Below, in pieces: positions 29,568 through 52,904 of a stretch of 64,000 bases of DNA (positions are counted from its first letter, which is position 1; every line of letters begins with the position of its first letter). The notes under the pieces are model-generated. The model ran no database searches, was not told the DNA's origin, and saw only the letters and a program-made list of their open reading frames with translations. Made by a program: the position numbers and the translations under genes. The DNA is taken from contig CAMNJQ010000059.1 of NCBI GenBank assembly GCA_946541575.1, forward strand, positions 21,857 through 85,856, written 5' to 3'. This DNA comes from an uncultured Clostridium sp. Its GTDB lineage: Bacteria; Bacillota_I; Bacilli_A; RF39; UBA660.

Positions 29568-29596
29568 ATGCGCTTGTTTAAAGGGGTTTGGTTATT

Positions 29597-30595
29597 ATGA
29601 CATTAGATGCAGAGGAAATTATTAATTATTATAAAGATAAATATGGCTATGTTACAGATATAGATAGTATAATTGAATTTTTTAAGCAAGACAAAACAAT
29701 TACAAATAAAGAAAAATCAGAAATATTACTAAGTATTTTAAGATGGAACTTAAAAATTGATAAAGAAAATAAAGAAAAATTAAAAGGATTCAAGAAAAAA
29801 GAAGAAAGACAAGAAACAAAAGAAATAAATAATCCAACTCTAGAAATAGATAAAAAAGAATCTGAATTTTTTGAAGCTTCTTCATATATTCATTCTATAA
29901 AAGAATGTGATGATGATGATTTTATTACAGAAATACTACCAACCATATATGATAACAACTATGAAAGTATAATTGGATCAATATTATTATATTTTTTAAG
30001 GGAATTATCTCTTGCTAATGACATGTTAGCAATAGAAACAAACGAAGAAGATCAATTATATCTTAAAAATGTTATCAAAAGAAATAAAGAAATAATTAAC
30101 ATTATAAAAAAATATAATAATGAAGAAGAAAATGAAACTACATTAAATACTACGCAAGAACATAATAAATTAATATTCTTAAGAAAAAAGAACTCTTCAT
30201 TATATATTAAAGATGATTTAGATAATACAGCAACAGAAGAAGATTTACTACCAATATTAAATGACATAATAACAGGAAATTTCACAAAAGAAAAAAGATT
30301 TCATAACAATGACGATTTAAAAGGGCTTTCAGCAATAAGAAGAAGAGATTCAAGAATTATTTTTGTAAGACTTAATAATAATATAATTTTAATTCTAGGA
30401 ATACTAGTAAAAAGATTTCAAAATCCACAAACATATAGAGATATGTTAAAAGCAAGAAACAAAGAATTTAAATTACAAAAAGACATTTTAAAAGAAAATA
30501 TAAATAATGAAGAATTTCTAAATTGTAATAAAGAAATACAAGAAGAAATAATTAAAGAATTAAATTCTAGGAAAAAAATACTTAAGGAGGCTTAA
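29597..30595 (+). CDS. hypothetical protein with embedded RelE/ParE/Gp49-like toxin-fold segment
   Basis: ATG at 29597 after AAAGGGG. Residues encoded at ~30161-30472 (LIFLRKK...LLPILNDI...LKGLSAIRRRDSRIIFVRLNNNIILILGILVKR...) resemble the Gp49/HigB-type pattern L.G..ElR....yRi.y......ivil.gf.KK. Confidence 0.45.
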   Translation: MTLDAEEIINYYKDKYGYVTDIDSIIEFFKQDKTITNKEKSEILLSILRWNLKIDKENKEKLKGFKKKEERQETKEINNPTLEIDKKESEFFEASSYIHSIKECDDDDFITEILPTIYDNNYESIIGSILLYFLRELSLANDMLAIETNEEDQLYLKNVIKRNKEIINIIKKYNNEEENETTLNTTQEHNKLIFLRKKNSSLYIKDDLDNTATEEDLLPILNDIITGNFTKEKRFHNNDDLKGLSAIRRRDSRIIFVRLNNNIILILGILVKRFQNPQTYRDMLKARNKEFKLQKDILKENINNEEFLNCNKEIQEEIIKELNSRKKILKEA

Positions 30596-32647
30596 ATGGA
30601 AAGATTAAAAAAATACATAGAACACTTCTATGATAAGAAAAAAATACCAACCGAGTTAAGTAGTGATGAAATTGAAGAATTAGAGTTTTTAAATGACTTT
30701 GTTAAAACAATAGATTTAAAAAATATATATACTATTTTAAATTGTAACAAAAGAAATTTTGTAATATCTGCAATCATTTCAAATAAAAATCATGAACCGA
30801 TTTCTTTATTAAAAGACAAAATAAATAGGTTGGATAATTCATTTTTCACATGTACTGATTACAATGAAATATATGAATTATATAATTCTATAATTATTTT
30901 TATAGAAAAGAATGAGTTTCAATTAATTGAAAATATTTCACCATTTGTAGAAAACAATGATCAAGATTTTAATAAAGAAATTGAAGAAAAAAATTTATTG
31001 AATGATGTAAATAAACTAAAAGAACAACTAAAAAAATATACAAAAAATGAAGAGCAAAGAAAAAACTTAATAGATTTATTTCTTAACTATAGTTATGAAT
31101 TAACTTTTTCATTAGTAGCAACTTCTGTAATAAATGAAGCAGCAACATCTTCAAATAGTAATCTACTTAGTCAAAAAAATATTTCATCCCCTATTCAGAA
31201 TAATAAACTAAACTATTTATCAATAAATAACAATGATAGTAATATAGATCTAACAGATAAAAATTGTTTAAGAAGAGTAAATGATTTAATAATGAATGCT
31301 GCACATTTTAAAGATTTATTTATATCAATGCAAAATAGAATAAAAGAAATAGAAAATTTGCCAATTACAAGAGAAAAAGAAAACAGCAAAATAACAAAGA
31401 AGAAAGAAAGAATATTAGCATATTTAGATTCATTTGATTTAAATAAACCAATAGATTTATCAAACTCATTTTTAGAATTAATTGATAATCAAAAATTAAA
31501 ATATTTCATAATTGGAAAAATAATAAGACTAAATTTAGAGCATCAAAAGAATACAATAATTGAACTAGACAAAGAAAAAGAATTATCAAAAATAGAACTA
31601 CTATTTAAAAATAGTAAATTCTCATTTGAGAAATTACTAAAAGAACAAGTTGAAAATTTAATAAAATATGGAAACATAGATAGCATTGAAAAAATATTGA
31701 CAATATTAACTGATTCAGATATTAAATTTAATGATAATTTTCCAATATATGATATTCTTCTATTATCAAATCAATCAAATGTTGCAAATATAATAAAACT
31801 ATATAATGTAAACTTAATAAACGAAGAATTTATAATTAAAAATCCAAATATATTTGTTGACACAATAAGCGAAGATTTAAAGAAAATAACTTCTATAAAT
31901 GAACCAAAATATAACGAATTAAATAATAATATAACTCAGTTAAAAGAAATTAAAATAAATATAAATGAAATTTCAAAAAAAGATAGTAAAATTCTTTTAA
32001 TGAATAATAAAGAATTAGAAACAGCTATTACATTAATTAAAAATTATCATTTAGACTATTCGACAAGTAATAACTTTGAATTAATAAGTAACATTAAAAA
32101 CATAGAAATTGCTGATAAATTCATTGAACTAGGATTAGGAGATTATTTAATAACTCACCCATATTTAATTGCAAAAAGAGCAAATAATAGATTAAAGCGT
32201 ATGCAATTATGTAAAATGTTAGAAATACCATTAATGCAAGATGGAAAAATAAATTCTAAAATAACAAGCCAAGAATTTAGAATTGGAAAAAACTATATAA
32301 ATGATGATGACATTGAATCTTTTATATCAAATTCTACACCAAGATATCAAAATCTTGATTGTCTAAAAATTTTAGTAGAAAATTATGATTATAATTACGA
32401 ATTAGAAGAAATTAAAGAGTTAGAAAAATATAAAACTAATGATTTAGAATATAACATTAATGGAATAATAATTTCAAGAAATAAAGTATTAAGAAACTAT
32501 AGCATATTATCCAAAAATATCACTATTTCAAATGACGTATTACTATTCAATTCAATTATTTATGGAAGTGTATTGGATGATGAGCAATTAGATATGTTAA
32601 GCAACTTAATAATAAATAAACAAAAAGAAAAACTGATAAATAGATAG
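30596..32647 (+). CDS. hypothetical 683-aa helical (repeat-like) protein, translationally coupled to the upstream gene
   Basis: AAGGAGG RBS. The ATG abuts the upstream TAA (TAAATG). K/N/E/I-rich protein with no catalytic motif recognised. Confidence 0.5.
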   Translation: MERLKKYIEHFYDKKKIPTELSSDEIEELEFLNDFVKTIDLKNIYTILNCNKRNFVISAIISNKNHEPISLLKDKINRLDNSFFTCTDYNEIYELYNSIIIFIEKNEFQLIENISPFVENNDQDFNKEIEEKNLLNDVNKLKEQLKKYTKNEEQRKNLIDLFLNYSYELTFSLVATSVINEAATSSNSNLLSQKNISSPIQNNKLNYLSINNNDSNIDLTDKNCLRRVNDLIMNAAHFKDLFISMQNRIKEIENLPITREKENSKITKKKERILAYLDSFDLNKPIDLSNSFLELIDNQKLKYFIIGKIIRLNLEHQKNTIIELDKEKELSKIELLFKNSKFSFEKLLKEQVENLIKYGNIDSIEKILTILTDSDIKFNDNFPIYDILLLSNQSNVANIIKLYNVNLINEEFIIKNPNIFVDTISEDLKKITSINEPKYNELNNNITQLKEIKININEISKKDSKILLMNNKELETAITLIKNYHLDYSTSNNFELISNIKNIEIADKFIELGLGDYLITHPYLIAKRANNRLKRMQLCKMLEIPLMQDGKINSKITSQEFRIGKNYINDDDIESFISNSTPRYQNLDCLKILVENYDYNYELEEIKELEKYKTNDLEYNINGIIISRNKVLRNYSILSKNITISNDVLLFNSIIYGSVLDDEQLDMLSNLIINKQKEKLINR

Positions 32648-35300: not shown

Positions 35301-36233
35301 CTAACCTCCATCAGTATCAGTGCTAATACTTTTAAAATTAATTTCTTCTCCATTAGATGTAGCAACAATAGTACCCATAATACTTGTATTAAATATTTCA
35401 GAATTAATTCTTTTCAATTTATTAATTACAACATCATGAGGATGACCATAATCATTATTTTCACCACAAGATATTATAGCATATTTAGGCTTAACTTTAT
35501 TTAAAAAATAAGCACTTGAACTATATTTTGAACCATGATGCCCAACTTTTAATACAGTACTACTTATGTCGCTATTTAATATTTGCTTCTCTACATTACT
35601 AGAAGCATCTCCTGTAAATAAAAAAGAAACATTCCCATATGTTAATTTAATAACTATTGATGTATCATTTAAATCTTCTTTATCAGAACCTACATATATA
35701 ATTTTAACCTCTGAGTTACCAAGCCTCAATTTAGTACCTACCTTTGGAGTTTTAAATGCAATATTCTTTTTATCTAATGCATCCAACACTTCATAAAAAG
35801 TTTGAGTAGAAGTTATACAATCAGGCATATAAAAATTACTTACTTTAAAATTATTAATTATATCATCCATGCCACCAATATGATCTTCATGAGCATGAGT
35901 ACCTACTAAATATTTAAACTCACTAATACCTAATGTTTTAAAATAATTAACTAATTTTACACCATCATTATTGTTTCCAGCATCTATTAGCATATACTCA
36001 TCTTGAGACTTAATCAAAATACTATCAGCTTGTCCAACATCTAAAAAGAAAACCATTAAATCATCAGTTAATATAATTGACTCATTATCATTAATAATAT
36101 TAACATTTTCAACATTAACAAAAATTGCATCTTTTAATTTTTGAAAAAATTTATCATCAACAAAATAAGACAAAGCAAATATAATAAAAATTAAAAAGAT
36201 TCTTACAATATATTTTTTTGTTTTCTTCTTCAT
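35301..36233 (-). CDS. membrane-anchored/secreted MBL-fold hydrolase, ComEC C-terminal-domain paralog
   Basis: TM anchor. VGQADSILI, GTHAHEDHIGG, FTGDAS, LKVGHHGSKYSSS and NDYGHPH match the ComEC-type metallo-beta-lactamase domain. Confidence 0.8.
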   Translation of the reverse strand: MKKKTKKYIVRIFLIFIIFALSYFVDDKFFQKLKDAIFVNVENVNIINDNESIILTDDLMVFFLDVGQADSILIKSQDEYMLIDAGNNNDGVKLVNYFKTLGISEFKYLVGTHAHEDHIGGMDDIINNFKVSNFYMPDCITSTQTFYEVLDALDKKNIAFKTPKVGTKLRLGNSEVKIIYVGSDKEDLNDTSIVIKLTYGNVSFLFTGDASSNVEKQILNSDISSTVLKVGHHGSKYSSSAYFLNKVKPKYAIISCGENNDYGHPHDVVINKLKRINSEIFNTSIMGTIVATSNGEEINFKSISTDTDGG

Positions 36234-37541: not shown

Positions 37542-37617
37542 GTTCTCGTAGCTCAGCAGGATAGAGCAATCCCCTCCTAAGGGATAGATGTGGGTTCGAG
37601 TCCTACCGGGGACACCA
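37542..37617 (+). tRNA. tRNA-Arg, anticodon CCU
   Basis: Folded by hand. Acceptor GTTCTCG/CGGGGAC, D arm GCTC-AGCAGGATA-GAGC, anticodon arm ATCCC-CTCCTAA-GGGAT (CCT at positions 34-36), T arm with GGTTCGAGTCC, encoded CCA. TGATATAAT promoter sits just upstream. Confidence 0.9.
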
Positions 37618-38362: not shown

Positions 38363-39013
38363 TTACTTTATTCTTTTAATATTACTCCAATCTCTTGCAT
38401 CATTTAAAATTTTTTCAGAATCAGCTAATAGTTTTGATGGATATTTAACATACTCTAAGATTTCTTCATTAGAATAATTTTCTAACATATACTTTCCTAT
38501 TGTAAATGCAATATGATAGTTTTGAGATAAAGATATAAAACTATTTATTTCTTCATTTGTTGCATTTATCACTACTTTTGTAAACATTTCTGGATTGCCT
38601 AAATTAGTTGCTAAAGCCTCCCAAAACCATATGATAGTTTTATTTGAGTGTTCCAATTCACTTTCTTGTTGGCAAATATGTACAAATTCATGTAATATTG
38701 TACTTTTTAACTCTTCAAGAGTCATATTAGCATGATAAGCTGTTTTACGAGCTTCTTTTATTGATAATAAATTAATGTTTCCATCATTTGTATCAGCACG
38801 CATATAATCATAATATTTACCAAATTGTTCAATATGCTTTTTATATAATTCTAAATCATCATATATAACTATTTTCCTCTTTTTGATAAGTGAATCTAAT
38901 TTAAAAAAAGACATAATATCATTTGATTTAGATTCTAAATAATTTACTACTTCTGGAATGTAAGAAATACTTTCATCATAATCAACTATAAAATTTTTCT
39001 TTTCTAATAACAT
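38363..39013 (-). CDS. cargo 5: putative MA-clan (gluzincin) metallopeptidase
   Basis: ILHEFVHICQ (HExxH) followed by IWFWEALATNLG, which resembles the W..EGLA third-ligand helix. ATG at 39013 follows GTGAT. Confidence 0.55.
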   Translation of the reverse strand: MLLEKKNFIVDYDESISYIPEVVNYLESKSNDIMSFFKLDSLIKKRKIVIYDDLELYKKHIEQFGKYYDYMRADTNDGNINLLSIKEARKTAYHANMTLEELKSTILHEFVHICQQESELEHSNKTIIWFWEALATNLGNPEMFTKVVINATNEEINSFISLSQNYHIAFTIGKYMLENYSNEEILEYVKYPSKLLADSEKILNDARDWSNIKRIK

Positions 39014-39059
39014 TAAAATCACTTCCTACAAAAACTATATCTCTAACAATTATTCTATA

Positions 39060-39140
39060 ATCATTTTTTTCAAATAGTTTAAAATTATTTGCTAAATAAA
39101 TTGTATCACCAATATGGTCAAAGTCTCTACTTTGTAACAT
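39060..39140 (-). pseudogene. decayed relic of a comEC 3' cassette (copy E)
   Basis: Complement translates MLQSRDFDHIGDTIYLANNFKLFEK, compared with comEC THGDYDHVGEAINLVNNFKVEK. A degenerate version of the cassette terminator hairpin lies next to it (39141-39163). Confidence 0.4.
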
Positions 39141-39163: not shown

Positions 39164-39640
39164 TTAATACTTTTTAATTAGTTTCTTTATTTTTGGCTTA
39201 AGATCATATATTTCTTCTTGCATTACTTCTCCAGATTCACTAATTGATAATTCTGGAATTACAATACCAGTTTCAAGTTCAATCCAATCAGCAAGCAACC
39301 TTCTATGACAAAAGTGCTCTTTGCTTATTTCCAATCCAGGTAACTCATGACAAAGTAATATTATTTCTTCTCCAAATTTTTGCTTTAAAGTATTCATTAA
39401 TTCAAATGGATTTAAATCTTTTAATCTTAAATTATAAAATTCATATATATACCAATTGATTAATTCATCTTCTAATAAATTATCTGGATTTTGTTCATAA
39501 TACTGCCATAAATATAATCTTGGAGACATTTTCTTATATGCACTACCATAAAATCCCCAGGCATTACCACCATCTCCAGTAATTGAAACTAAATTTCCAT
39601 TTTTTGCATTAGCATAACAGCTTGTTCCTTTTATAATCAT
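39164..39640 (-). CDS. cargo 4: DUF488-like protein
   Basis: IILLCHELPG...FCHRRLLADWIELETGIVIPEL matches the DUF488 C-terminal pattern LLC.E...CHR.l.A.W. The N-terminal half is atypical, so this is tentative. Confidence 0.45.
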   Translation of the reverse strand: MIIKGTSCYANAKNGNLVSITGDGGNAWGFYGSAYKKMSPRLYLWQYYEQNPDNLLEDELINWYIYEFYNLRLKDLNPFELMNTLKQKFGEEIILLCHELPGLEISKEHFCHRRLLADWIELETGIVIPELSISESGEVMQEEIYDLKPKIKKLIKKY

Positions 39641-39762
39641 CAAAATCACTCACAAATTAATAAATATTATATCATAAACTTATTCTTTTAATTTAAAACT
39701 TTAATTAATTTCCTTTCTAAATAATTATATTTTTTATTCTATTCAATTCATCATCTCCCATT

Positions 39763-40353
39763 CTATAGACTACAAGTATCTATTTTTAATTTATTATTTT
39801 TAATCTTAAACAAAATACTTCCATCTTTATCTGTTCTATATACTTTAGAATCTTTTATGTTTTCTAATACTTCTTTATTTGGATGACCATACTTATTATT
39901 TTTACCAACACTAATAACTGAATAATCTGGATTAATATTATCTATAAACTCAATACTCAAACTTGTCTTACTTCCATGATGTCCTACTTTTAAAATATCT
40001 ACATCATGTAAAGTATATTGTTTTAATATTTCTTTTTCAGTAGTCATAGATGCATCTCCCATAAACATAAATCTATAACCACCAAGTTTTGTATATATAA
40101 CATTACTATTATCGTTCTCATTATCATATTCTTTTGTTTAAAGAAAATATAATTTATTTTTATCTATATTTAGTTCTTTAACACATGAATAATACTTTAT
40201 ATTTTTCTTATTTAATACTTTAATTAACTCTTTTTCTAAATCATTAAATTCTCCACAATTAAAGATAACTTTTTCTACCTTAAAATTATTAACTAAGTTA
40301 ATAGCTTCTCCCATGTTGGCATAATCTCCATGTGGTGACATACGTTTATGCAT
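39763..40353 (-). pseudogene. orphan comEC 3' cassette, copy C, with an in-frame nonsense codon
   Basis: Single frame reads SPHGDYANMGEAINLVNNFKVEKVIFNCGEFNDLEKEL...KLYFL*TKEYDNENDNSNVIYTKLGGYRFMFMGDAS...KIDTCSL. TAA at 40138-40140 replaces the Gln codon of comEC. Confidence 0.85.
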
Positions 40354-40368
40354 ACGAATTTAGAAATT

Positions 40369-40397
40369 AAAAAAAGAACTATCAAATAGATAATTCT
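40369..40397 (-). terminator. terminator of cargo 3 / cassette junction hairpin
   Basis: Minus strand AGAATTATC-n5-GATAGTTCT plus T7. The same hairpin sequence recurs at 42916-42943. Confidence 0.75.
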
Positions 40398-41274
40398 AAC
40401 GCTTATTTCTTGTAATCATATCACTATCCGTAGGAACTTTAGAGATAAAGCTAAATAAAGTATTTGGCAAATCACTTATAGGTATTTCAATAATACCTGT
40501 AGCTCCAACACTATCTTGATTAACTTTATTAATTCCTGGTAAATTGTTTACCATATCAACATTACATATTTTTGGAATAAAGTATTCAATCCTAGCTATT
40601 TGTAAATTTAAAGTTATTTCTATCGTTAGGGCATGCCCTCTATCTCTAACCATCATCAATAACTTTCTTTCATTAATAGCAACCATATCAGTCCATCCAA
40701 CATCTAAATCATTGGGAAATAGCGCTAATAATTGTTCAAATGCAGATACTTTAACCCCTCTTAACGATATTGGATATTTATAATCATTTTCCTTTTTATC
40801 AATCAATGGAATAGATTGCAAAATTTGTTCATTATTTAAAATAAATGAATGCATAAAATGTAATATTTCATTAATTGTCTTTGCATTTTTTGCAGAAGAA
40901 ACACTGCCAAAGGTATATCCAACACATTCTTTCTTTACAGCATTAATAAAATCTAATTCCATATTACTGACAAAATTTTTATAGAACAAACGTAATTTAT
41001 CAATATCATAACCACATGAATAAAAATTATTTTTAATAATATTTTCCATCTCAGTTATTTTGCTCATGATTTGTGATTCAAATCCAAAAATATCTGCAGT
41101 TATACATTTTAATTCACTAAATATATATATTAAGGAATCATTAACACTATTCGAATATTTTTCGACATCAGCATATAAATTATCACTTGGGGGAGCTATA
41201 TCAAGCATTTCTTTTTTTATTTTAAAATCAACTTCGAAAAAATGCTGTAGCTTTAACAATTTTACATCTACCAT
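40396..41274 (-). CDS. cargo 3: hypothetical 292-aa protein
   Basis: ATG at 41274 follows AAAGGTGTGAT. The earlier track ATG lies inside the -10 box. No motif recognised. Confidence 0.55.
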   Translation of the reverse strand: MVDVKLLKLQHFFEVDFKIKKEMLDIAPPSDNLYADVEKYSNSVNDSLIYIFSELKCITADIFGFESQIMSKITEMENIIKNNFYSCGYDIDKLRLFYKNFVSNMELDFINAVKKECVGYTFGSVSSAKNAKTINEILHFMHSFILNNEQILQSIPLIDKKENDYKYPISLRGVKVSAFEQLLALFPNDLDVGWTDMVAINERKLLMMVRDRGHALTIEITLNLQIARIEYFIPKICNVDMVNNLPGINKVNQDSVGATGIIEIPISDLPNTLFSFISKVPTDSDMITRNKR

Positions 41275-41340
41275 ATTATTATCACACCTTTTGTTCATTA
41301 TATCATATTTTTTATTCTATTCAATTCATCATCTCCCATT

Positions 41341-41883
41341 CTATGAACTACAAGTCTCTATTTTCAATTTATTATTTTTGATTTTAAACATAATACTTCC
41401 ATCTTTATCTGTTCTGTATATTTTTGAATCATTTAAATTGTCTAATACTTCTTTATTTGGATGACCATAACGATTATTTTTGCCTACACTAATAATGGAA
41501 TACTTAGCATCTATAAACTCTTTACTACTGCTTGTCTTTGAACCATGATGCCCTACTTTTAAGACATCTATATCTGATAAATTATATTTATCTAATATTT
41601 CTTTTTCAGTAGCAGTGCTTGCATCTCCCATAAACATAAATTTATAGTTATTTATTTCTGTATAAATAACATTTGAATTATCATTTTCATTATCATATTC
41701 TTTTGTTTGTAAAAAATATAATTTATTTTTATCTATATTTAATTCTTTAATACACGAATAATACTTTATTTTCTTTTTATCTAATACATTTATTAGTTCT
41801 TTTTCTAAATCGTTATATTCTCCACAATTAAATATAACTTTATCTGCCTTAAAACTATTAACTAAATTAATAGCTTCTCCCAT
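41341..41883 (-). pseudogene. orphan comEC 3' cassette, copy B (reading frame intact, lacks the comEC 5' part)
   Basis: MGEAINLVNSFKADKVIFNCGEYNDLEKEL...VGHHGSKTSSSKEFID...NNRYGHPNKEVL...KIETCSS is identical to the comEC C-terminus at most positions by eye. Homology continues upstream through HGDYDH to 41901. A TAA at 41908-41910 closes the frame. Confidence 0.85.
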
Positions 41884-41958
41884 ATGATCATAATCCCCAT
41901 GTGGTGATTATCTGTTATGCACACTAATTTAAGACAAAAGAAAAGAACTACAAAGGTC

Positions 41959-42702
41959 CTAATTTTTAATAAAATTCAATGTAACTTTCAATGCTTCTTT
42001 CATGTGCTCATCATTATGAAACCCATGATCTGCGCCATCAATTAAATATAATTTAGCATTTTTACATTTCTTGCTAGTATTAACAGAAGATTTGTATGAT
42101 ACATACGGATCAGACGTACCATGCACAAACAATAATGGAATATCTATTTTTTGCAATCTCTTGTAAGTAGTGTATTTTCGTTCATCTTTAAAATATTCAT
42201 AACTTAATTTCCAGCCATTCTCAATTGGATAATAACCTTGTTTTTTTGCAATTTTTTCTTTCTTGCTTGGAATATTAAATAATCCTCTTCCATAATCTAT
42301 TGCTGGATACCATAATATGATTTTTTTGATATCATATTTATTTAAATCAACATTAGAAACAATTCTTCCCCCCATAGAACAACCTATCAAAATAAAATTT
42401 TTATAATTATATTTTTTATTTAACATATCTAATGTATCATGAAGATTCCTTACCATATTGGACACAGTATATTCATTATAACTTCCATCTGATTCACCAC
42501 ACCCAACAAAATCAAATCTAAAATTATTAATACTATTTTTAGTCAGTTCCTCAGATATTTTAGTAGTAGGTCTAGAATCTTTGCTACTGGTTCTTGCATG
42601 ACATATAACTACTATCTCATAATTTTCGTTTGTTTTATTAATAACACCACATAGTTTTAAATTATTGTATGTTGGATAAAATATTTTTTCTTCATTTATC
42701 AT
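41959..42702 (-). CDS. cargo 2: alpha/beta hydrolase
   Basis: GCSMGG nucleophile elbow, HGTSDPYV (Asp), GADHGF (His). ATG at 42702 follows GGATGTGAT. Confidence 0.75.
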   Translation of the reverse strand: MINEEKIFYPTYNNLKLCGVINKTNENYEIVVICHARTSSKDSRPTTKISEELTKNSINNFRFDFVGCGESDGSYNEYTVSNMVRNLHDTLDMLNKKYNYKNFILIGCSMGGRIVSNVDLNKYDIKKIILWYPAIDYGRGLFNIPSKKEKIAKKQGYYPIENGWKLSYEYFKDERKYTTYKRLQKIDIPLLFVHGTSDPYVSYKSSVNTSKKCKNAKLYLIDGADHGFHNDEHMKEALKVTLNFIKN

Positions 42703-42744
42703 ACTTATCACATCCTGTAATTATTATATCATAATTCTTCGTGA

Positions 42745-42910
42745 TTACGGACCGCAAGCCTCAATTATTAATTTATTACTTTTTATTTTAAACATAATAC
42801 TTCCATCTATATCTGTTCTATATATTTTTGAAGTTTCTAAATTATTTAACGCTTCTTTATTAGAATGTCCATATCTATTATTTTGGCCAACTGCTATTGA
42901 GTAGTTAGTA
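42745..42910 (-). pseudogene. orphan comEC 3' cassette, copy D (5'-truncated, last ~55 codons)
   Basis: Not in ORF track. Complement translates NYSIAVGQNNRYGHSNKEALNNLETSKIYRTDIDGSIMFKIKSNKLIIEACGP*, compared with comEC RYSVISVGKNNRYGHPNKEALDNLRESKIYRTDEDGSIMFKIKNNELKIRTCSP*. Confidence 0.8.
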
Positions 42911-42915
42911 CATAT

Positions 42916-42943
42916 AAAAAAAGAACTATCATATGATAATTCT
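42916..42943 (-). terminator. terminator of cargo 1 / cassette junction hairpin
   Basis: Minus strand AGAATTATC-ATATG-GATAGTTCT plus a T-run. Confidence 0.75.
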
Positions 42944-43608
42944 TATACAATACTATTATTATTTAAATACTTTGTAATATATTCTATGCATTCATTAAAT
43001 ATCTTATCCAATTCTTTCTTATCAGTTATTTTATAATTATAAAGACATATTTTTGAAAAGAAATTAACCTTACCTAAATCTTTATTAGAAGATATTATAT
43101 AATTATTCAGTTTTTCTTTATTAAATGTTGCTTCATCAATATCAATTACATTGTTTACACACTTTAAATTTTTAAATTTGTAAATGTATCCATGATTAAT
43201 TAACCATTTATCATAAATATTCATTTCCCTATGCTTTAAATCTTTTCGCGCTTTTCCATCTAGAAGTTTTTTCCTACCTTTTAAATACATGCCTATACCA
43301 TTATCATTTTTATCATAGATATAAAAATGTTTAAAAAAATATTCATTATAAAATCTATCTGTTAATATATGTATAAGATACCCAAGCATTATTGGATTAT
43401 CAAGCCTATTCTTATATTTTTGTATAAATTTATCTGGATTGGCTAGACCTTCTAAATCTTTTTCACCAGATTGAAAATGAGCAACTGAATGATCTCTTCC
43501 CTCACAAATATCTGGAAGAACACTTCCTAACATTATTGAATCTAAATCCATTTTAATTTTATCATTAACTTTCTTAGCAATTGCTAAATGAATTTTATGA
43601 GTTGGCAT
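42943..43608 (-). CDS. cargo 1: hypothetical, possibly zinc-dependent phospholipase C / P1-nuclease-like fold
   Basis: MPTHKIHLAIAKKV...GSVLPDI...HSVAHF...GYLIHILTDRF gives a His/Asp pattern reminiscent of that family. Tentative. Confidence 0.4.
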   Translation of the reverse strand: MPTHKIHLAIAKKVNDKIKMDLDSIMLGSVLPDICEGRDHSVAHFQSGEKDLEGLANPDKFIQKYKNRLDNPIMLGYLIHILTDRFYNEYFFKHFYIYDKNDNGIGMYLKGRKKLLDGKARKDLKHREMNIYDKWLINHGYIYKFKNLKCVNNVIDIDEATFNKEKLNNYIISSNKDLGKVNFFSKICLYNYKITDKKELDKIFNECIEYITKYLNNNSIV

Positions 43609-43648
43609 ATAAACACATCCTATAATTATTATATCATATTACTCCTTT

Positions 43649-45676
43649 CTATGGACTACATGTTCTTATCTTTAATTCATTATTTTTAATTTTAAACATA
43701 ATACTGCCATCCTCGTCTGTTCTATATATTTTTGATTCTCTTAAATTATCTAATGCCTCTTTATTTGGATGTCCATATCTATTATTCTTTCCAACTGATA
43801 TAACACTATATCTTGGATTTATTTCATCAATAAATTCTTTACTACTACTTGTTCTTGATCCATGATGTCCTACTTTTAAAATATCTACATCATGTAAAGT
43901 ATATTGTTTTAATATTTCTTTTTCAGTAATACTTGATGCATCTCCCATAAACATAAATCTATAACCACCAAGCTCAGTATAAATAACATTAGAATTATCA
44001 TTTTCATTATCATAAACTTTCGTTTGTAAGAAATATAATTTGTTTTCATTTATATTTAATTCTTTAATACATGAATAATATTTAATTTTCTTTTTATCTA
44101 ACACTTTTATTAATTCTTTTTCTAAATCATTAAATTCGCCACAATTAAAGATAACTTTCTCTACTTTAAAATTATTAACTAAGTTAATAGCTTCTCCCAC
44201 ATGATCGTAATCCCCATGTGTAATAATTAAATAATCGAGGTTTCTAATACCAAATGACTTAAATAATGGAATAGAATTATTATAAAGAATATCACGATTA
44301 CTTATACCGCCAGTATCAATGAGAATATTTGTTCTTCTATTATGAATTAAAATTGAATCACCCTGTCCAACATCTAATATCAATACATAATTACTTAGAA
44401 AAATATCGTTATAATTATAATGAATGCATAAAATAATTAAAAAAAATACTAATAATTTTTTATTGTAAAAAATGAAAGAATAGATTATCAAATAATATAT
44501 TACAACAACAGCAATTGATGGCTTTATAAAAATTAAAGAAGAATTAATACTTCCAAACCATAATGATAAACATTCTAAAATCTTTATAAAAATTATAAAG
44601 AATTCATCAAATAATGGAAACGCTAAAGTAATAATAGAAAAAGGAAAGACTATAAAAGAAACATAAGGAACTAAAATAGAATTAAAAAGAAATGATAAGA
44701 CATTTAACTCACTATAACTATAAATATTAAGTGGAATTGAAAAAATAAAAGATAAAAAAGATATATAAATTATTTTAACAAACATATTTTTTATTTCATT
44801 TAATTTCTTACTAGATAAAGTTAATATAGAACTTATAATAAAAGAATAATAAAAGCCAATATTATATATAGAATTTGGAACTATTATAATCACAATTAAA
44901 ATACTTATTAATAAATGCCTCTTTTTATCAAAATTCAAACCTAGAATTGCATTAATTTCTTTTAAAAGAAGTTGTACCACACATCTTAATATAGATATAC
45001 TTCCAATAAATTGATAATACAAAAAAAGAATAATAGCAAATAAAAAAGTTTTCTTAATATTATTTCGCTTATACACTAAACTTAATAAACCAACTAAAAA
45101 AGAAAGATGAGTACCTGAAATTGAAAACAAATGAATTATTCCAATTTTCTTATATATTGAAATATTATCATCATTTATTTCACTCTTATCACCTAAAATA
45201 AATGCTTTTAAATAACTATAACTTTTTAATTTATTTATTTTACTATCAACATCTCTCTTTATTTTAAGAAAAAGATTTTTACTTTCTCCAACTTTTTCAT
45301 AATTATAAATTTTTAAATTAAAAAATACATTATTCCTATTTTGATATTCCTTATAATTAAATAAATTAAAATTTCTATTATTTTCTAATTCAAATAGCAT
45401 TCCTTTTATTTTTAATTTATCTCCTATTTTTAATGAATTGTTTTCTAAATAAGAAACTAATTTTTCTCCACAATCTAACTCTAGACTATTATTATTTTTA
45501 ATATTTGTAACTACACAAGAAAAAGAAGTTTTATCAATATTAAAGATTGTGTAATTATGTACCTTATAATCTGTAAATCTAAATATAGCAAAAAATATTA
45601 AGACATAAATAATTAATTTAGACTTTAATACTATTTTTAATTTTTTCAAATAATGCGTCTCCAATTCCAGAAACAT
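43649..45676 (-). CDS. comEC: DNA internalization competence protein ComEC/Rec2 (full length)
   Basis: Multi-TM competence domain. C-terminal MBL domain with VGQGDSILI, THGDYDHVGE (HGDYDH at 44201-44218), FMGDAS, VGHHGSRTSSS and NRYGHPN. Located downstream of comEA. The track start overlaps comEA by 59 nt, so the true start may be internal. Confidence 0.9.
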   Translation of the reverse strand: MFLELETHYLKKLKIVLKSKLIIYVLIFFAIFRFTDYKVHNYTIFNIDKTSFSCVVTNIKNNNSLELDCGEKLVSYLENNSLKIGDKLKIKGMLFELENNRNFNLFNYKEYQNRNNVFFNLKIYNYEKVGESKNLFLKIKRDVDSKINKLKSYSYLKAFILGDKSEINDDNISIYKKIGIIHLFSISGTHLSFLVGLLSLVYKRNNIKKTFLFAIILFLYYQFIGSISILRCVVQLLLKEINAILGLNFDKKRHLLISILIVIIIVPNSIYNIGFYYSFIISSILTLSSKKLNEIKNMFVKIIYISFLSFIFSIPLNIYSYSELNVLSFLFNSILVPYVSFIVFPFSIITLAFPLFDEFFIIFIKILECLSLWFGSINSSLIFIKPSIAVVVIYYLIIYSFIFYNKKLLVFFLIILCIHYNYNDIFLSNYVLILDVGQGDSILIHNRRTNILIDTGGISNRDILYNNSIPLFKSFGIRNLDYLIITHGDYDHVGEAINLVNNFKVEKVIFNCGEFNDLEKELIKVLDKKKIKYYSCIKELNINENKLYFLQTKVYDNENDNSNVIYTELGGYRFMFMGDASSITEKEILKQYTLHDVDILKVGHHGSRTSSSKEFIDEINPRYSVISVGKNNRYGHPNKEALDNLRESKIYRTDEDGSIMFKIKNNELKIRTCSP

Positions 45677-51697: not shown

Positions 51698-52012
51698 TCA
51701 AACATCTACTTTTTTTAAAAAATATTGAAATATTTTTTTTAATCCCGCATTTATAACATGTGATATATTTCCATTTATTTCAGTAATTGCATTTCCGTAA
51801 TATTTATCTTTGATTAAATAATCATTCAAGTCAATTTCAACACCATTTTTAATATCATTTTCAAACTTATTAATTTGCTCTATAGTTAAGTTTTTTCTTT
51901 CTGTTAATTTATATCCATATATATTACCACCAAAAAAATATAAAAAAATAAAAAATAGAAATAAAATAGAAATAAAATATTTATATACTTTTTTAATCAA
52001 GTTTTCCTCCAA
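51698..52012 (-). CDS. small membrane protein in the YqxA (DUF3679) position downstream of spoIIP
   Basis: N-terminal TM. The call is based on synteny gpr-spoIIP-yqxA as in Bacillus. Sequence-level support is weak. Confidence 0.4.
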   Translation of the reverse strand: MEENLIKKVYKYFISILFLFFIFLYFFGGNIYGYKLTERKNLTIEQINKFENDIKNGVEIDLNDYLIKDKYYGNAITEINGNISHVINAGLKKIFQYFLKKVDV

Positions 52013-52904
52013 TATATAAATTGATCATCTCAGCAATAACATCTATTGTATTACCAACTTCATCAAAAGTGTTTTCTTCACCACCAACTTCAATTAAAAT
52101 ACATAAATTAGAAAAATCTTGATTGTAAACTCCATTTACTCCTTTGCCCTTTTTTCTATAAATACCTCTACTAAGTCCTTTATAATTAGTATTCAAATAA
52201 TTTTCAAGTTTTGTCATAACTATTTCATTTTGTCTATAATTTTCATTCTCAAGTCCCAATAAAAACATAGTTTTCGCATATTTTTTTCCATTAATATCAA
52301 TTGTACTAATATTTTTATTTACTGAATCTCTATGCAAATCTATAAAATACTTCAAAGATGGATTTTCTTCTTTCCTTTTTTCCATAAACATTCTAGAAAC
52401 TCTATAAGAACTAGCATAATTCCAATTATTAGTATTCAAAACGTCATTAATACTAGATGTTTCAACAATAGATTCTATTCCATATTTTTTCAGTTTACTT
52501 TGCAACAAAAAACTAGCATCTAAAACAGAATAATTAATATTTATTTCTTTCGTACCACTATATTTTTCTGTTTGATGAGTATTATAAATATATACAATAG
52601 GACTTGAATCAGTTTTCATAGTCTCTACTTCATAATCATTATCTACATTTTCATTATTAACACCTACATTATAATTATTCATTAAAATAGAAACCGGATT
52701 TATCAAATCAACAGATTTTACTTTGGATACAAACTCGTTAATAAGTCTATTTTCACTACTAATATTGCCAGAGCTATCTAATAAAACCTCTAATGTTTCC
52801 TCATCTAGCACAAGATCATAACTATCAAGCCATTTTACTGTATAAATCAAACTAAAAACCATTATTATTACCAAAGTCAAGAATTTCCAAACATTTCTTT
52901 TCAT
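51993..52904 (-). CDS. spoIIP: stage II sporulation protein P
   Basis: TM anchor. IVYIYNTHQTEKY and FIDLHRDS match the SpoIIP amidase-like motifs. Located downstream of gpr. Confidence 0.8.
   Translation of the reverse strand: MKRNVWKFLTLVIIMVFSLIYTVKWLDSYDLVLDEETLEVLLDSSGNISSENRLINEFVSKVKSVDLINPVSILMNNYNVGVNNENVDNDYEVETMKTDSSPIVYIYNTHQTEKYSGTKEININYSVLDASFLLQSKLKKYGIESIVETSSINDVLNTNNWNYASSYRVSRMFMEKRKEENPSLKYFIDLHRDSVNKNISTIDINGKKYAKTMFLLGLENENYRQNEIVMTKLENYLNTNYKGLSRGIYRKKGKGVNGVYNQDFSNLCILIEVGGEENTFDEVGNTIDVIAEMINLYIGGKLD

Follow-up and report, generated by a model that had tools for sequence, protein, structure and literature searches.

Why should a bacterial genome carry one complete copy of the competence gene comEC followed by a row of partial copies of its own 3′ end, each set apart from the next by an unrelated gene? 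This question is raised by a stretch of 64,000 nt from an uncultured Clostridium sp. (assembly GCA_946541575.1, contig CAMNJQ010000059.1, positions 21,857 to 85,856), referred to here as the window, in which the layout along the gene strand is live comEC, gene 1, D, gene 2, B, gene 3, C, gene 4, E, gene 5. Copy A is the 3′ segment of the live comEC, and B, C, D, and E are partial comEC 3′ copies downstream. The answer that we consider probable is that the locus is a serial C-terminal displacement array at comEC, built from cassettes that, together with their replacement ends, have spread horizontally through many species of uncultured gut Bacilli. The unit of such an array would consist of a replacement comEC 3′ end, a first gene, a promoter/leader with TGATATAAT, one variable cargo gene, a terminator, and a conserved junction. 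Each arriving cassette would supply the live gene with its new end, shifting the old end downstream as a 5′-truncated orphan, and the window, read from the newest cassette to the oldest, would comprise A/gene 1, D/gene 2, B/gene 3, C/gene 4, and E/gene 5.

All sequences compared here are metagenome-assembled. A ComEC search yielded 80 loci with whole-protein identity of 42–54%, every one from uncultured gut metagenome-assembled genomes (MAGs) labelled Bacilli, Erysipelotrichaceae, 'Tenericutes' or Clostridium sp. CAG; related comEC loci in other genomes are designated L004, L014, and so forth. Orphan comEC ends are found in 42 of the 80 loci, at 1–3 per locus and 1–3 kb downstream of the live gene, and a scan for the pattern TCACCA+CATGGNGAYTAYGAYCAYATGGG adds 59 further stretches, all from the same kind of MAG, with up to 4–6 orphans per 8 kb. 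The array system is present in more than 100 uncultured gut Bacilli genomes. Truncation points are fixed: in the C-terminal query, residue 6–7 (the His of HGDxDH) is where most orphans begin, and 145–146 is the start of a second class, to which D belongs. In the DNA, these points are the CATGG of the HGDxDH motif (site I) and a position ~150 nt before the stop codon (site II).

The comEC end downstream of site I has a history of its own. Across 67 species, amino-acid identity is 0.25–0.5 up to residue 480 and ~0.8 for residues 481–675, and third-codon-position identity rises from ~0.45 upstream to 0.62–0.70 downstream, with the step located at the junction and not at the start of the metallo-β-lactamase domain (around residue 435). 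Mean DNA identity is 0.56 for the 5′ part vs 0.79 for the 3′ part, and the two sets of distances are not positively correlated (Spearman −0.20). The pair L004/L014 illustrates the contrast, with 61% identity in the 5′ part and 97% in the 3′ part; moreover, in L004, the live module spans 1479 nt between site I and the yhcG end and aligns at 95.9% with an orphan module of L014, the match beginning exactly at site I. Given this contrast in identity and the lack of correlation, the comEC 3′ end, together with a YhcG-like or DinD-like gene, is horizontally mobile. Individual ends are patchworks, containing segments 99–100% identical to the ends of different species. Positions 41450–40307 of the window have 92% DNA identity over 1144 nt to L037, whose ComEC is only ~50% identical, and the gene 4 cassette shares 84–87% DNA identity with cassettes of L004, L011, L025, and L049.

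What, then, marks the boundaries of the mobile segment? Sites I and II recur next to conserved junctions that end in TCACCA or TACTAACTAC. The class I junction, which is non-coding and conserved, runs from a terminator through TTTTTCTTTG, ~8 variable nt, ATTCG, and a 16-nt stretch to TCACCA, followed by CATGG. It has two main centres, TATGCATAAACGTATG and ACTTACTTTTTGACAA, and occurs as variant 1 (...ATTCGTATGCATAAACGTATGTCACCA|CATGG, 34 instances) and variant 2 (...ATTCGACTTACTnnTTGACAATCACCA|CATGG, 46 instances), whereas live comEC genes have unrelated sequence at the junction position. Class II orphans are preceded by (T)ATATGTACTAACTAC. Variant 2 (e.g., L004:13505–13560) places TTGACA 16 nt upstream of TATGAT, the latter formed by the Y-D codons of the orphan; by eye, the pair resembles a sigma-70 promoter and would read into the orphan and the next cassette. 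A dif-like reading of the junction was likewise considered by eye. Variant 1 supplies the orphan with an in-frame ATG (MHKRMSPHGD...). At L141:2–5600, at least four successive class II orphans lie 0.4–1.5 kb apart beside a longer orphan fragment, an array mainly built at site II.

At the other end of the segment, where the comEC stop elsewhere reads TGTAGTCCA TAG, one of two first genes begins 10–20 nt later. Type 1 encodes a ~295-aa YhcG/DUF1016 nuclease of the PD-(D/E)XK kind (PADLOC candidate PDC-S02), and type 2 a ~273-aa DinD-like Bro-N protein (NCBIfam DinD, 344 bits; PADLOC PDC-S13). The variable second gene comes next, and its leader has TGATATAAT 12–25 nt ahead of the start; where the first gene is yhcG, the TGA stop of this gene supplies the TG of TGATATAAT. 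Representative second genes belong to the NUDIX, Fic, WDGH, peptidase S51, DUF218, MFS, DUF952, and HD families. In all five cassettes of the window, the first gene has been deleted, leaving stubs, and this gives a different meaning to the two flank subtypes that the original prediction had described for the comEC copies. The subtypes are real, and their identity is that of stubs of the two alternative first genes, DinD-type for B and C (DinD-type start in the 39-nt B/C flank, GATGATAAAATGAATGAAATAAAAGAATAT vs GATGATGAATTGAATAGAATAAAAAATAT) and YhcG-type for A and, apparently, D. Across the pool of ends, no linkage of the first-gene type to the adjacent comEC end was found anywhere in the 570 nt, so the grouping (A,D)|(B,C) in the window reflects local history, not two module families.

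If cassettes are added one after another, intermediates should be seen, and L009 provides one. Its class II orphan, 571-aa gene, junction, and second orphan align in the same order with the live end and the same cassette of L054 (94% over 2485 nt); L009 is an L054-like arrangement with one more cassette inserted at site II. Displaced native ends can likewise be recognized. The orphans of L011 (orphan 2), L016, L033, L047, and L080 have 0.66–0.69 identity to the pool, the same distance as the live ends of the cassette-free loci L061, L077, and L079, and 0.61–0.72 identity to each other. Because they are as far from the pool as the cassette-free live ends and equally far from one another, these divergent orphans are best read as the displaced native comEC end of each species. 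A second mobile family as their source was considered and rejected, since they differ from each other as much as from everything else. The open frame is kept in 19 of the 21 full-length orphans, which indicates that displacement is recent, and dN/dS (the ratio of nonsynonymous to synonymous substitution rates) of orphan vs live resembles that of live vs live.

How do the copies in the window relate to one another? The original prediction held that they are mosaics produced by recombination, and the alignment bears this out. The tract of identity between A (43862–43928) and C (39976–40042) runs 3 nt further than had been described, giving 70 nt (43859–43928 = 39973–40042), within which B has 12 mismatches. 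Near the stop, on the gene strand, B and C read AGAACAGATAAAGATGGAAGT vs AGAACAGACGAGGATGGCAGT in A. The 39-nt post-stop flank is identical in B and C (40 nt with one more base, 41305–41344 = 39727–39766, a stretch in which the stop codon is included), the ATGATATAATAATTAYAGGATGTG flank is common to A and D with no other match in the 64 kb (0 expected by chance), and the 5′ junction common to B and C is missing from A. In the three-way alignment of A, B, and C from the junction to the stop, 129 sites unite two copies against the third (45 BC, 43 AC, and 41 AB), such that the overall pattern is star-like, with the sites strongly clustered. They fall into 63 runs vs 86.9 ± 5.3 under permutation (p<5e-5), the longest consecutive run of A=C sites is 12 (p=1.5e-4), 3x3 block heterogeneity gives a chi-square of 36.5 (p=2e-7), and 3SEQ-like maximum-descent tests give p=1e-4 to 3e-4. 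The tree topology shifts along the repeat, and the mosaic needs recombination. In alignment columns 9–250, identity is 0.89 for AB, 0.84 for AC, and 0.87 for BC; in columns 250–375, these values become 0.78, 0.93, and 0.77, and in columns 375–583, they are 0.79, 0.76, and 0.84. The 70-nt tract is the core of a ~125-nt A=C block with 93% identity, and over the last 152 nt, the part that D also covers, five of five two-by-two informative sites favour (A,D)|(B,C). The tests on triplets and runs are significant, and the pairwise homoplasy index (PHI), which had been proposed, is only marginal (p=0.043 for A, B, C, and the five nearest relatives).

Strong purifying selection had been named as an alternative explanation for the A/C identity. 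All 94 copies from other species differ from the tract by at least 9 mismatches over 70 nt, so purifying selection does not explain it, and the tract is private to this genome. The copies are also not decayed duplicates of one resident gene, an option rejected on the grounds that identity among A, B, and C (83%) does not exceed their identity to the comEC ends of other species (up to 85–88%). A, B, and C are successive horizontally acquired comEC ends. Copy E (39078–39125), a fifth remnant, was absent from the earlier list of copies.

Two processes contribute to the mosaic. First, nested insertion at sites I and II makes a live end composite by construction. Such nesting, which the comparison of L009 with L054 shows, would also apply to copy A if its architecture is taken as a guide: its last ~150 nt would have come with the gene 1 cassette, and its upstream part, once contiguous with D, with the gene 2 cassette. 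Copy A is the outlier in the last third of the alignment. Second, homologous exchange takes place among the ~570-nt direct repeats of a genome and between them and incoming alleles; its candidate footprints are the A=C tract of 70 nt, which is private, and the B=C tract of 40 nt. Perfect tracts shared by a live gene and an orphan occur elsewhere, with lengths of ~495 nt in L014, ~285 in L032, ~255 in L078, ~135 in L011, and ~75 in L031. The L032 tract is unusual, possibly native sequence, and abuts site I; it could be either orphan-to-live conversion or incomplete replacement. The A/C tract may have been transferred either way, as collections hold one strain of the species: the sole other contig with this ComEC comes from the same strain (2 mismatches in 10.6 kb), and the next relative is 61% identical.

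Exchange of this kind brings up the proposal, made together with the mosaic claim, that the orphans act as a sequence reservoir for the nuclease-like domain of ComEC. In its full form, they would be maintained silent cassettes from which gene conversion diversifies this domain, as with pilE/pilS, MgPa/MgPar, and vlsE. The layout invites the idea, as one expressed gene is accompanied by several co-oriented promoterless partial copies, private identical tracts link live genes and orphans in the window and at least five other genomes, and at L032, L011, and L076, an unusual, possibly native segment start is common to the live gene and an orphan, as orphan-to-live transfer would yield. However, dN/dS among A, B, and C is 0.14–0.24 vs a live–live median of 0.16, without sign of diversifying selection, and no other part of ComEC is as conserved in the clade as the mobile segment. 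In addition, the copies alternate with unrelated genes with promoters and terminators of their own, and the orphans decay: C has lost catalytic residues and contains a stop codon, D and E are stumps, and many elsewhere are truncated. That 19 of the 21 full-length orphans are open, which a reservoir would predict, is also explained by recent displacement. The reservoir role is therefore not supported, and we judge it improbable.

Several observations weigh against serial displacement, beginning with those that concern the assembly. In four gut metagenomes, the k-mer depth of the repeat is 110–470 vs 3–55 for the cargo (10–20x), and contigs break at the repeats; the distal order B–gene 3–C–gene 4–E rests on the assembly, L037, and a second assembly. 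These facts, and the purely metagenomic nature of the data, are what an assembly artefact would lead one to expect, in which cassettes of different gut genomes have been chained through the shared comEC end. Such chaining cannot, however, create the junction sequence with which orphans start and which live genes lack. Contigs from independent samples and studies cross the B-start/junction/gene 2/D and the D/junction/gene 1/A-end connections, the second assembly carries the same 10.6 kb with 2 mismatches, and the architecture, locally including the cassette order, recurs in MAGs of unrelated studies. A mis-join would also yield a single switch point, not an internal identical patch. An artefact is accordingly very hard to credit. 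In three gut metagenome runs, a B-like sequence is joined in register to an A-like one (41507 to 43829, with 13 differing letters between them), which may be another mosaic allele or a strain without cassettes 1 and 2; no source run was found, and the best metagenome run holds 23% of the sampled window words.

Further points on the same side concern the recombination signal and the means of movement. PHI on a 30-sequence pool of ends is not significant (p=0.52), a result without power, probably because the sites are saturated; as PHI is weak, the case for recombination rests instead on the triplet tests and the tract identities. The former contiguity of the upstream part of A with D is inferred from architecture. 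Both junction sites border the most conserved nucleotide stretches on their 5′ side, a position as compatible with homology-driven as with site-specific targeting. Neither the 35 representative cargo proteins, nor ten sampled window open reading frames (ORFs), nor a motif scan of the window revealed a recombinase, transposase, or other mobility enzyme, and the comEC end was not found on any phage or plasmid. A motif scan of 1.85 Mb of loci recovered only Xer-like genes. At seven loci (L047, L073, L087, L093, L095, L117, and L124; e.g., L095:5117–6010), a Xer-like tyrosine recombinase of 297 aa, 70–88% identical between species, is the first conserved gene after the array and co-oriented with it. 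As an array-linked integrase, it was rejected, given its restriction to seven loci and its synteny with tdk, which follows it in six of the seven, and with ppdK. This gene is probably housekeeping XerC/CodV and is the only recombinase seen near any array.

Under serial displacement, how would cassettes enter a genome? Among genomes that already have a mobile-type end, shuffling would require only ordinary homologous recombination, plausibly after natural transformation, a plausible vehicle given that the lineage possesses both ComEA and ComEC. Entry into a naive comEC for the first time would be a different matter, targeted and independent of homology. In at least four species, apparently native orphans show native sequence within the first 10–35 nt after CATGG, each behind the same imported junction, and these ends are ~61–72% identical to the pool and to each other. 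The TCACCA at the junction end is invariant and forms, by eye, a partial dyad with TGGNGA. Taken together, these features point to a targeted, site-specific-like exchange. Entry by a trans-acting site-specific recombinase has, in our estimation, an even chance of being correct, and entry by homology- or microhomology-driven events at the conserved motif falls somewhat short of that.

A more radical version dispenses with any dedicated enzyme for the whole process. The junctions would have arisen once or twice by illegitimate duplication, and everything else would be RecA-dependent recombination of transformed DNA, with the direct repeats of the comEC end as arms or, between close relatives, the 5′ part of comEC and the downstream genes. 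Several facts agree with this: no recombinase lies in or beside the cassettes; the pool is thoroughly recombined, with 99–100% patches between species and no linkage of end to first gene; and there are just two or three junction types, of which class I variants 1 and 2 share both ends (ATTCG...TCACCA), as descent predicts. A comparable model, homology-facilitated illegitimate recombination, has been proposed for effector–immunity arrays of the type VI secretion system (T6SS) (PMC5361080). Native orphans are nevertheless joined within 10–35 nt of CATGG at ~61–72% identity, too little homology for RecA-mediated exchange, and repeated microhomology events would miss a common point. The native-like orphans are still open, and hence not pseudogenes inherited from a common ancestor, and the junction appears better conserved than adjacent synonymous sites, in an informal comparison subject to ascertainment. 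Movement by homology throughout is, in our judgement, less likely than not.

It is also conceivable, though we think it rather unlikely, that these are enzyme-less or trans-mobilized selfish cassettes specialized on comEC, which overwrite the resident end, have in this way made one half of the ComEC nuclease-like domain uniform in dozens of species, and use displaced ends as the homology arms of the next arrival. If so, replacement of the last 150–570 nt would keep the host transformable, and as recipients that take up DNA by transformation need a working comEC, the target would be guaranteed in each of them. The species so homogenized are otherwise saturated with substitutions genome-wide.

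The anatomy of the window follows from the features introduced above; all parts of the array lie on the minus strand. The live comEC (43649..45676) is an ORF of 675 aa with Pfam PF03772 (Competence) and PF00753 (metallo-beta-lactamase), and its mobile-type 3′ segment, copy A (43649..44218), extends from the CAT (His) codon of ITHGDYDH, i.e., site I, to the stop. The boundary of A is the step in cross-species conservation at residues 481–487, and its last ~150 nt, from site II, occupy 43649–43800. The post-stop flank (43609..43648) consists of a yhcG-type ribosome-binding site plus ATG (43634–43648) fused to the TGA stop of that gene and TGATATAAT (43628–43636) and continues into the gene 1 leader AATTATAGGATGTG. 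Since more than 50 loci have TAG-AAAGGAGTAATATGAATTATTATAAT directly after the comEC stop, the flank is read as the trace of a yhcG-like first gene deleted from this cassette. Cargo gene 1 (42943..43608) encodes 221 aa with weak similarity to Zn-dependent phospholipase C and has a relative in L045. It is followed by a terminator hairpin and class II junction (42898..42944); the hairpin, AGAAUUAUC-AUAU-GAUAGUUCU with a U run, folds at −9 kcal/mol (z=−4.1), and the junction, TATATGTACTAACTAC at 42901–42916, occurs once in the window and also precedes the class II orphans of L048, L065, and L009.

Copy D (42745..42897) is the class II orphan, comprising the last ~50 comEC codons with the frame intact and TAA as the stop. 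Its flank (42712..42744) holds an apparent yhcG 3′ remnant, TGATATAAT (42723–42731), and the leader of cargo gene 2 (41959..42711), which encodes an alpha/beta hydrolase of 250 aa with a likely start ATG at 42702. A degenerate tail with a class I junction of variant 1 (AAATTAGTGTGCATAACAGATAATCACCA) spans 41902..41958 and ends at site I; this junction between gene 2 and B ends in ...GTGCATAACAGATAATCACCA. Copy B (41341..41901), a class I orphan with an open frame and a 9-nt deletion, begins at CATGG of HGDYDH. In its flank (41297..41340), a DinD-type ribosome-binding site plus ~7 codons (41305–41337) is fused to TGATATAAT (41297–41305), the sole extended −10 promoter-like match in that interval. 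Compared with window positions 41300–41400, L037:13601–13745 is without the stretch between two TTGAAnATAGA repeats (the end of B and the DinD stub), which looks like a small deletion between 11-nt direct repeats.

Cargo gene 3 (40396..41298; likely start 41274) encodes 300 aa of no family and is followed by a terminator hairpin and a class I junction of variant 1 (40333..40397; ATTCGTATGCATAAACGTATGTCACCA at 40333–40359), the tail folding as a terminator at −8.6 kcal/mol (z about −4). Copy C (39763..40332) has the same start point as B and is a pseudogene, in which DYANMG replaces DYDHMG, such that the catalytic DH is gone, and an in-frame TAA lies within 40131–40146. Its flank (39650..39762) contains a DinD-type 5′ remnant (39727–39759), an apparent DinD 3′ remnant (judged by eye), TGATATAAT (39666–39674), and the leader of cargo gene 4 (39164..39649), which encodes a DUF488-like protein of 161 aa. 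At the distal end, the divergent stump of copy E (DFDHIGDTIYLANNFK, 39078–39125), possibly the native comEC end of this species, is joined to a yhcG 3′ remnant (39040–39062), the two together spanning 39040..39125. The oldest cassette carries cargo gene 5 (38363..39022; 219 aa, HEFVH motif, likely start 39013), whose homologues are found next after the gene 3 homologue in L037 and also in L007. A promoter scan of the window is uninformative at 25% GC, with 71 promoter-like matches vs 75.7 expected and AT-rich terminators missed, and folding was therefore used for terminators instead.

Upstream of the array lie comEA, ftsW/rodA, tsf, and rpsB. At their longest, the ORFs of comEA and comEC have 59 nt in common (45618–45676), and the true start of comEC may be further downstream. 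A tRNA-Arg(CCT) is encoded on the opposite strand (37542–37617, plus) just past the array's distal end, beyond an HD-domain gene, and no comEC-type repeat accompanies it; tRNA was the only Rfam match in the window. A separate protein of 310 aa is encoded at 35301–36233 (minus). It has a hydrophobic segment at its N-terminus and a metallo-beta-lactamase domain, and its 36% identity to the C-terminus of ComEC makes it a stand-alone paralogue of the ComEC-like nuclease domain outside the array. Two ORFs of 335 and 683 aa without a Pfam match occupy 29588–32647 (plus), where GC content is at its lowest in the window (0.20) and GC skew is reversed; this stretch may be a separate island. Finally, the window contains a SpoIIP gene according to Pfam (51993–52904, minus), and ORF pairs beside the comEC arrays of L005 and L032 resemble, by eye, SpoIIGA and a sporulation sigma factor; sporulation genes suggest a spore-forming lineage despite the 'Tenericutes/Mycoplasma' labels on some of these MAGs.

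Should serial displacement be correct, a large group of uncultured gut Bacilli has an essential competence gene of which one part is a mobile module. Conservation of the coding segment, including its synonymous sites, then reflects horizontal replacement rather than purifying selection, which calls for caution in ComEC-based phylogenies and selection scans. The locus would be a hotspot for cassettes that have defined ends and their own promoter and terminator, moving accessory genes between species without a recognizable mobility gene, and the first genes of these cassettes match the phage-defence candidate families PADLOC PDC-S02 and PDC-S13. The fixed junctions offer a handle either on a new targeting mechanism or on the reach of transformation plus homologous recombination alone. 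In practice, 'comEC pseudogene fragments' in such genomes mark cassette boundaries and the order of acquisition.

Which known system does this resemble most? The logic of the array is closest to that of the C-terminal displacement arrays of Rhs, contact-dependent inhibition (CDI), and T6SS loci. The literature on such Rhs, CdiA-CT/CdiI, and T6SS effector–immunity arrays comprises Kirchberger 2017 (PMC5361080) and, as cited there, Jackson 2009, Poole 2011, and Koskiniemi 2014. As in those loci, a full-length gene is followed by co-oriented 5′-truncated former 3′ ends, the newest nearest to the live gene, and each end is linked to the gene or genes that arrive with it, the new end being acquired horizontally and the old one displaced. 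Mosaic structure, horizontal spread, the lack of any integrase found, and the capacity of orphans to recombine with the expressed gene are likewise shared. The difference lies in what is carried: there, hypervariable toxin domains with cognate immunity genes; here, conserved ends (~80% amino-acid identity) of a housekeeping DNA-uptake gene, encoding half a metallo-beta-lactamase domain and linked not to immunity genes but to unrelated accessory genes with their own promoters (NUDIX, Fic, hydrolases, DUF488, etc.). In addition, the truncation points at comEC are fixed behind a conserved non-coding junction, and the incoming end homogenizes the gene across species instead of diversifying it.

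Elements that insert at the 3′ end of a gene, carry a replacement end, and accrete in tandem include integrative and conjugative elements, integrative and mobilizable elements, and cis-mobilizable elements (ICE/IME/CIME, such as the ICESt family at fda), tRNA-targeting islands, and tycheposons together with satellites. They share with the comEC cassettes what looks like a fixed insertion point, an element-supplied 3′ end, the old end left as a direct repeat on the far side, and arrays formed by repetition, and their integrase-less members could move in trans, as comEC cassettes might. Such elements have integrases, but no integrase-bearing comEC cassette has been found, the duplicated target is 150–570 nt rather than tens of nt, the units are 1–2.5 kb with one or two genes, and two target sites are nested in one gene. 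Integrons resemble the array in having single-gene cassettes with conserved ends and miscellaneous cargo, added proximally as older ones are pushed distally. Unlike integrons, however, the array has no IntI beside it and no recognized attC-type imperfect palindrome, and its cassettes have their own promoter, end in a terminator and a linear junction, and are separated by copies of the target-gene end.

In silent-cassette systems such as pilE/pilS, MgPa/MgPar, and vlsE, one expression site is accompanied by partial silent copies with patchwork identity. The likeness extends to the layout of the copies only, as those of comEC are insertion by-products among cargo genes and are not under diversifying selection. 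The minimal mobile elements of Neisseria are cassettes exchanged by transformation between conserved flanking genes; they, too, have no mobility genes and miscellaneous cargo, and a spread of comEC cassettes in this way would need transformation and flanking homology. Unlike comEC cassettes, they sit between two different conserved genes and neither duplicate nor replace part of a gene. In the literature, no account of this comEC system was found, nor any paper linking comEC with DUF1016, with RF39 and competence, or with orphan C-terminal cassettes, and the literature on attB/integration sites yielded phage and ICE cases only. What is new at this locus is that, in a process otherwise familiar as C-terminal displacement and cassette accretion, the conserved end of a housekeeping gene is itself the mobile homology module.

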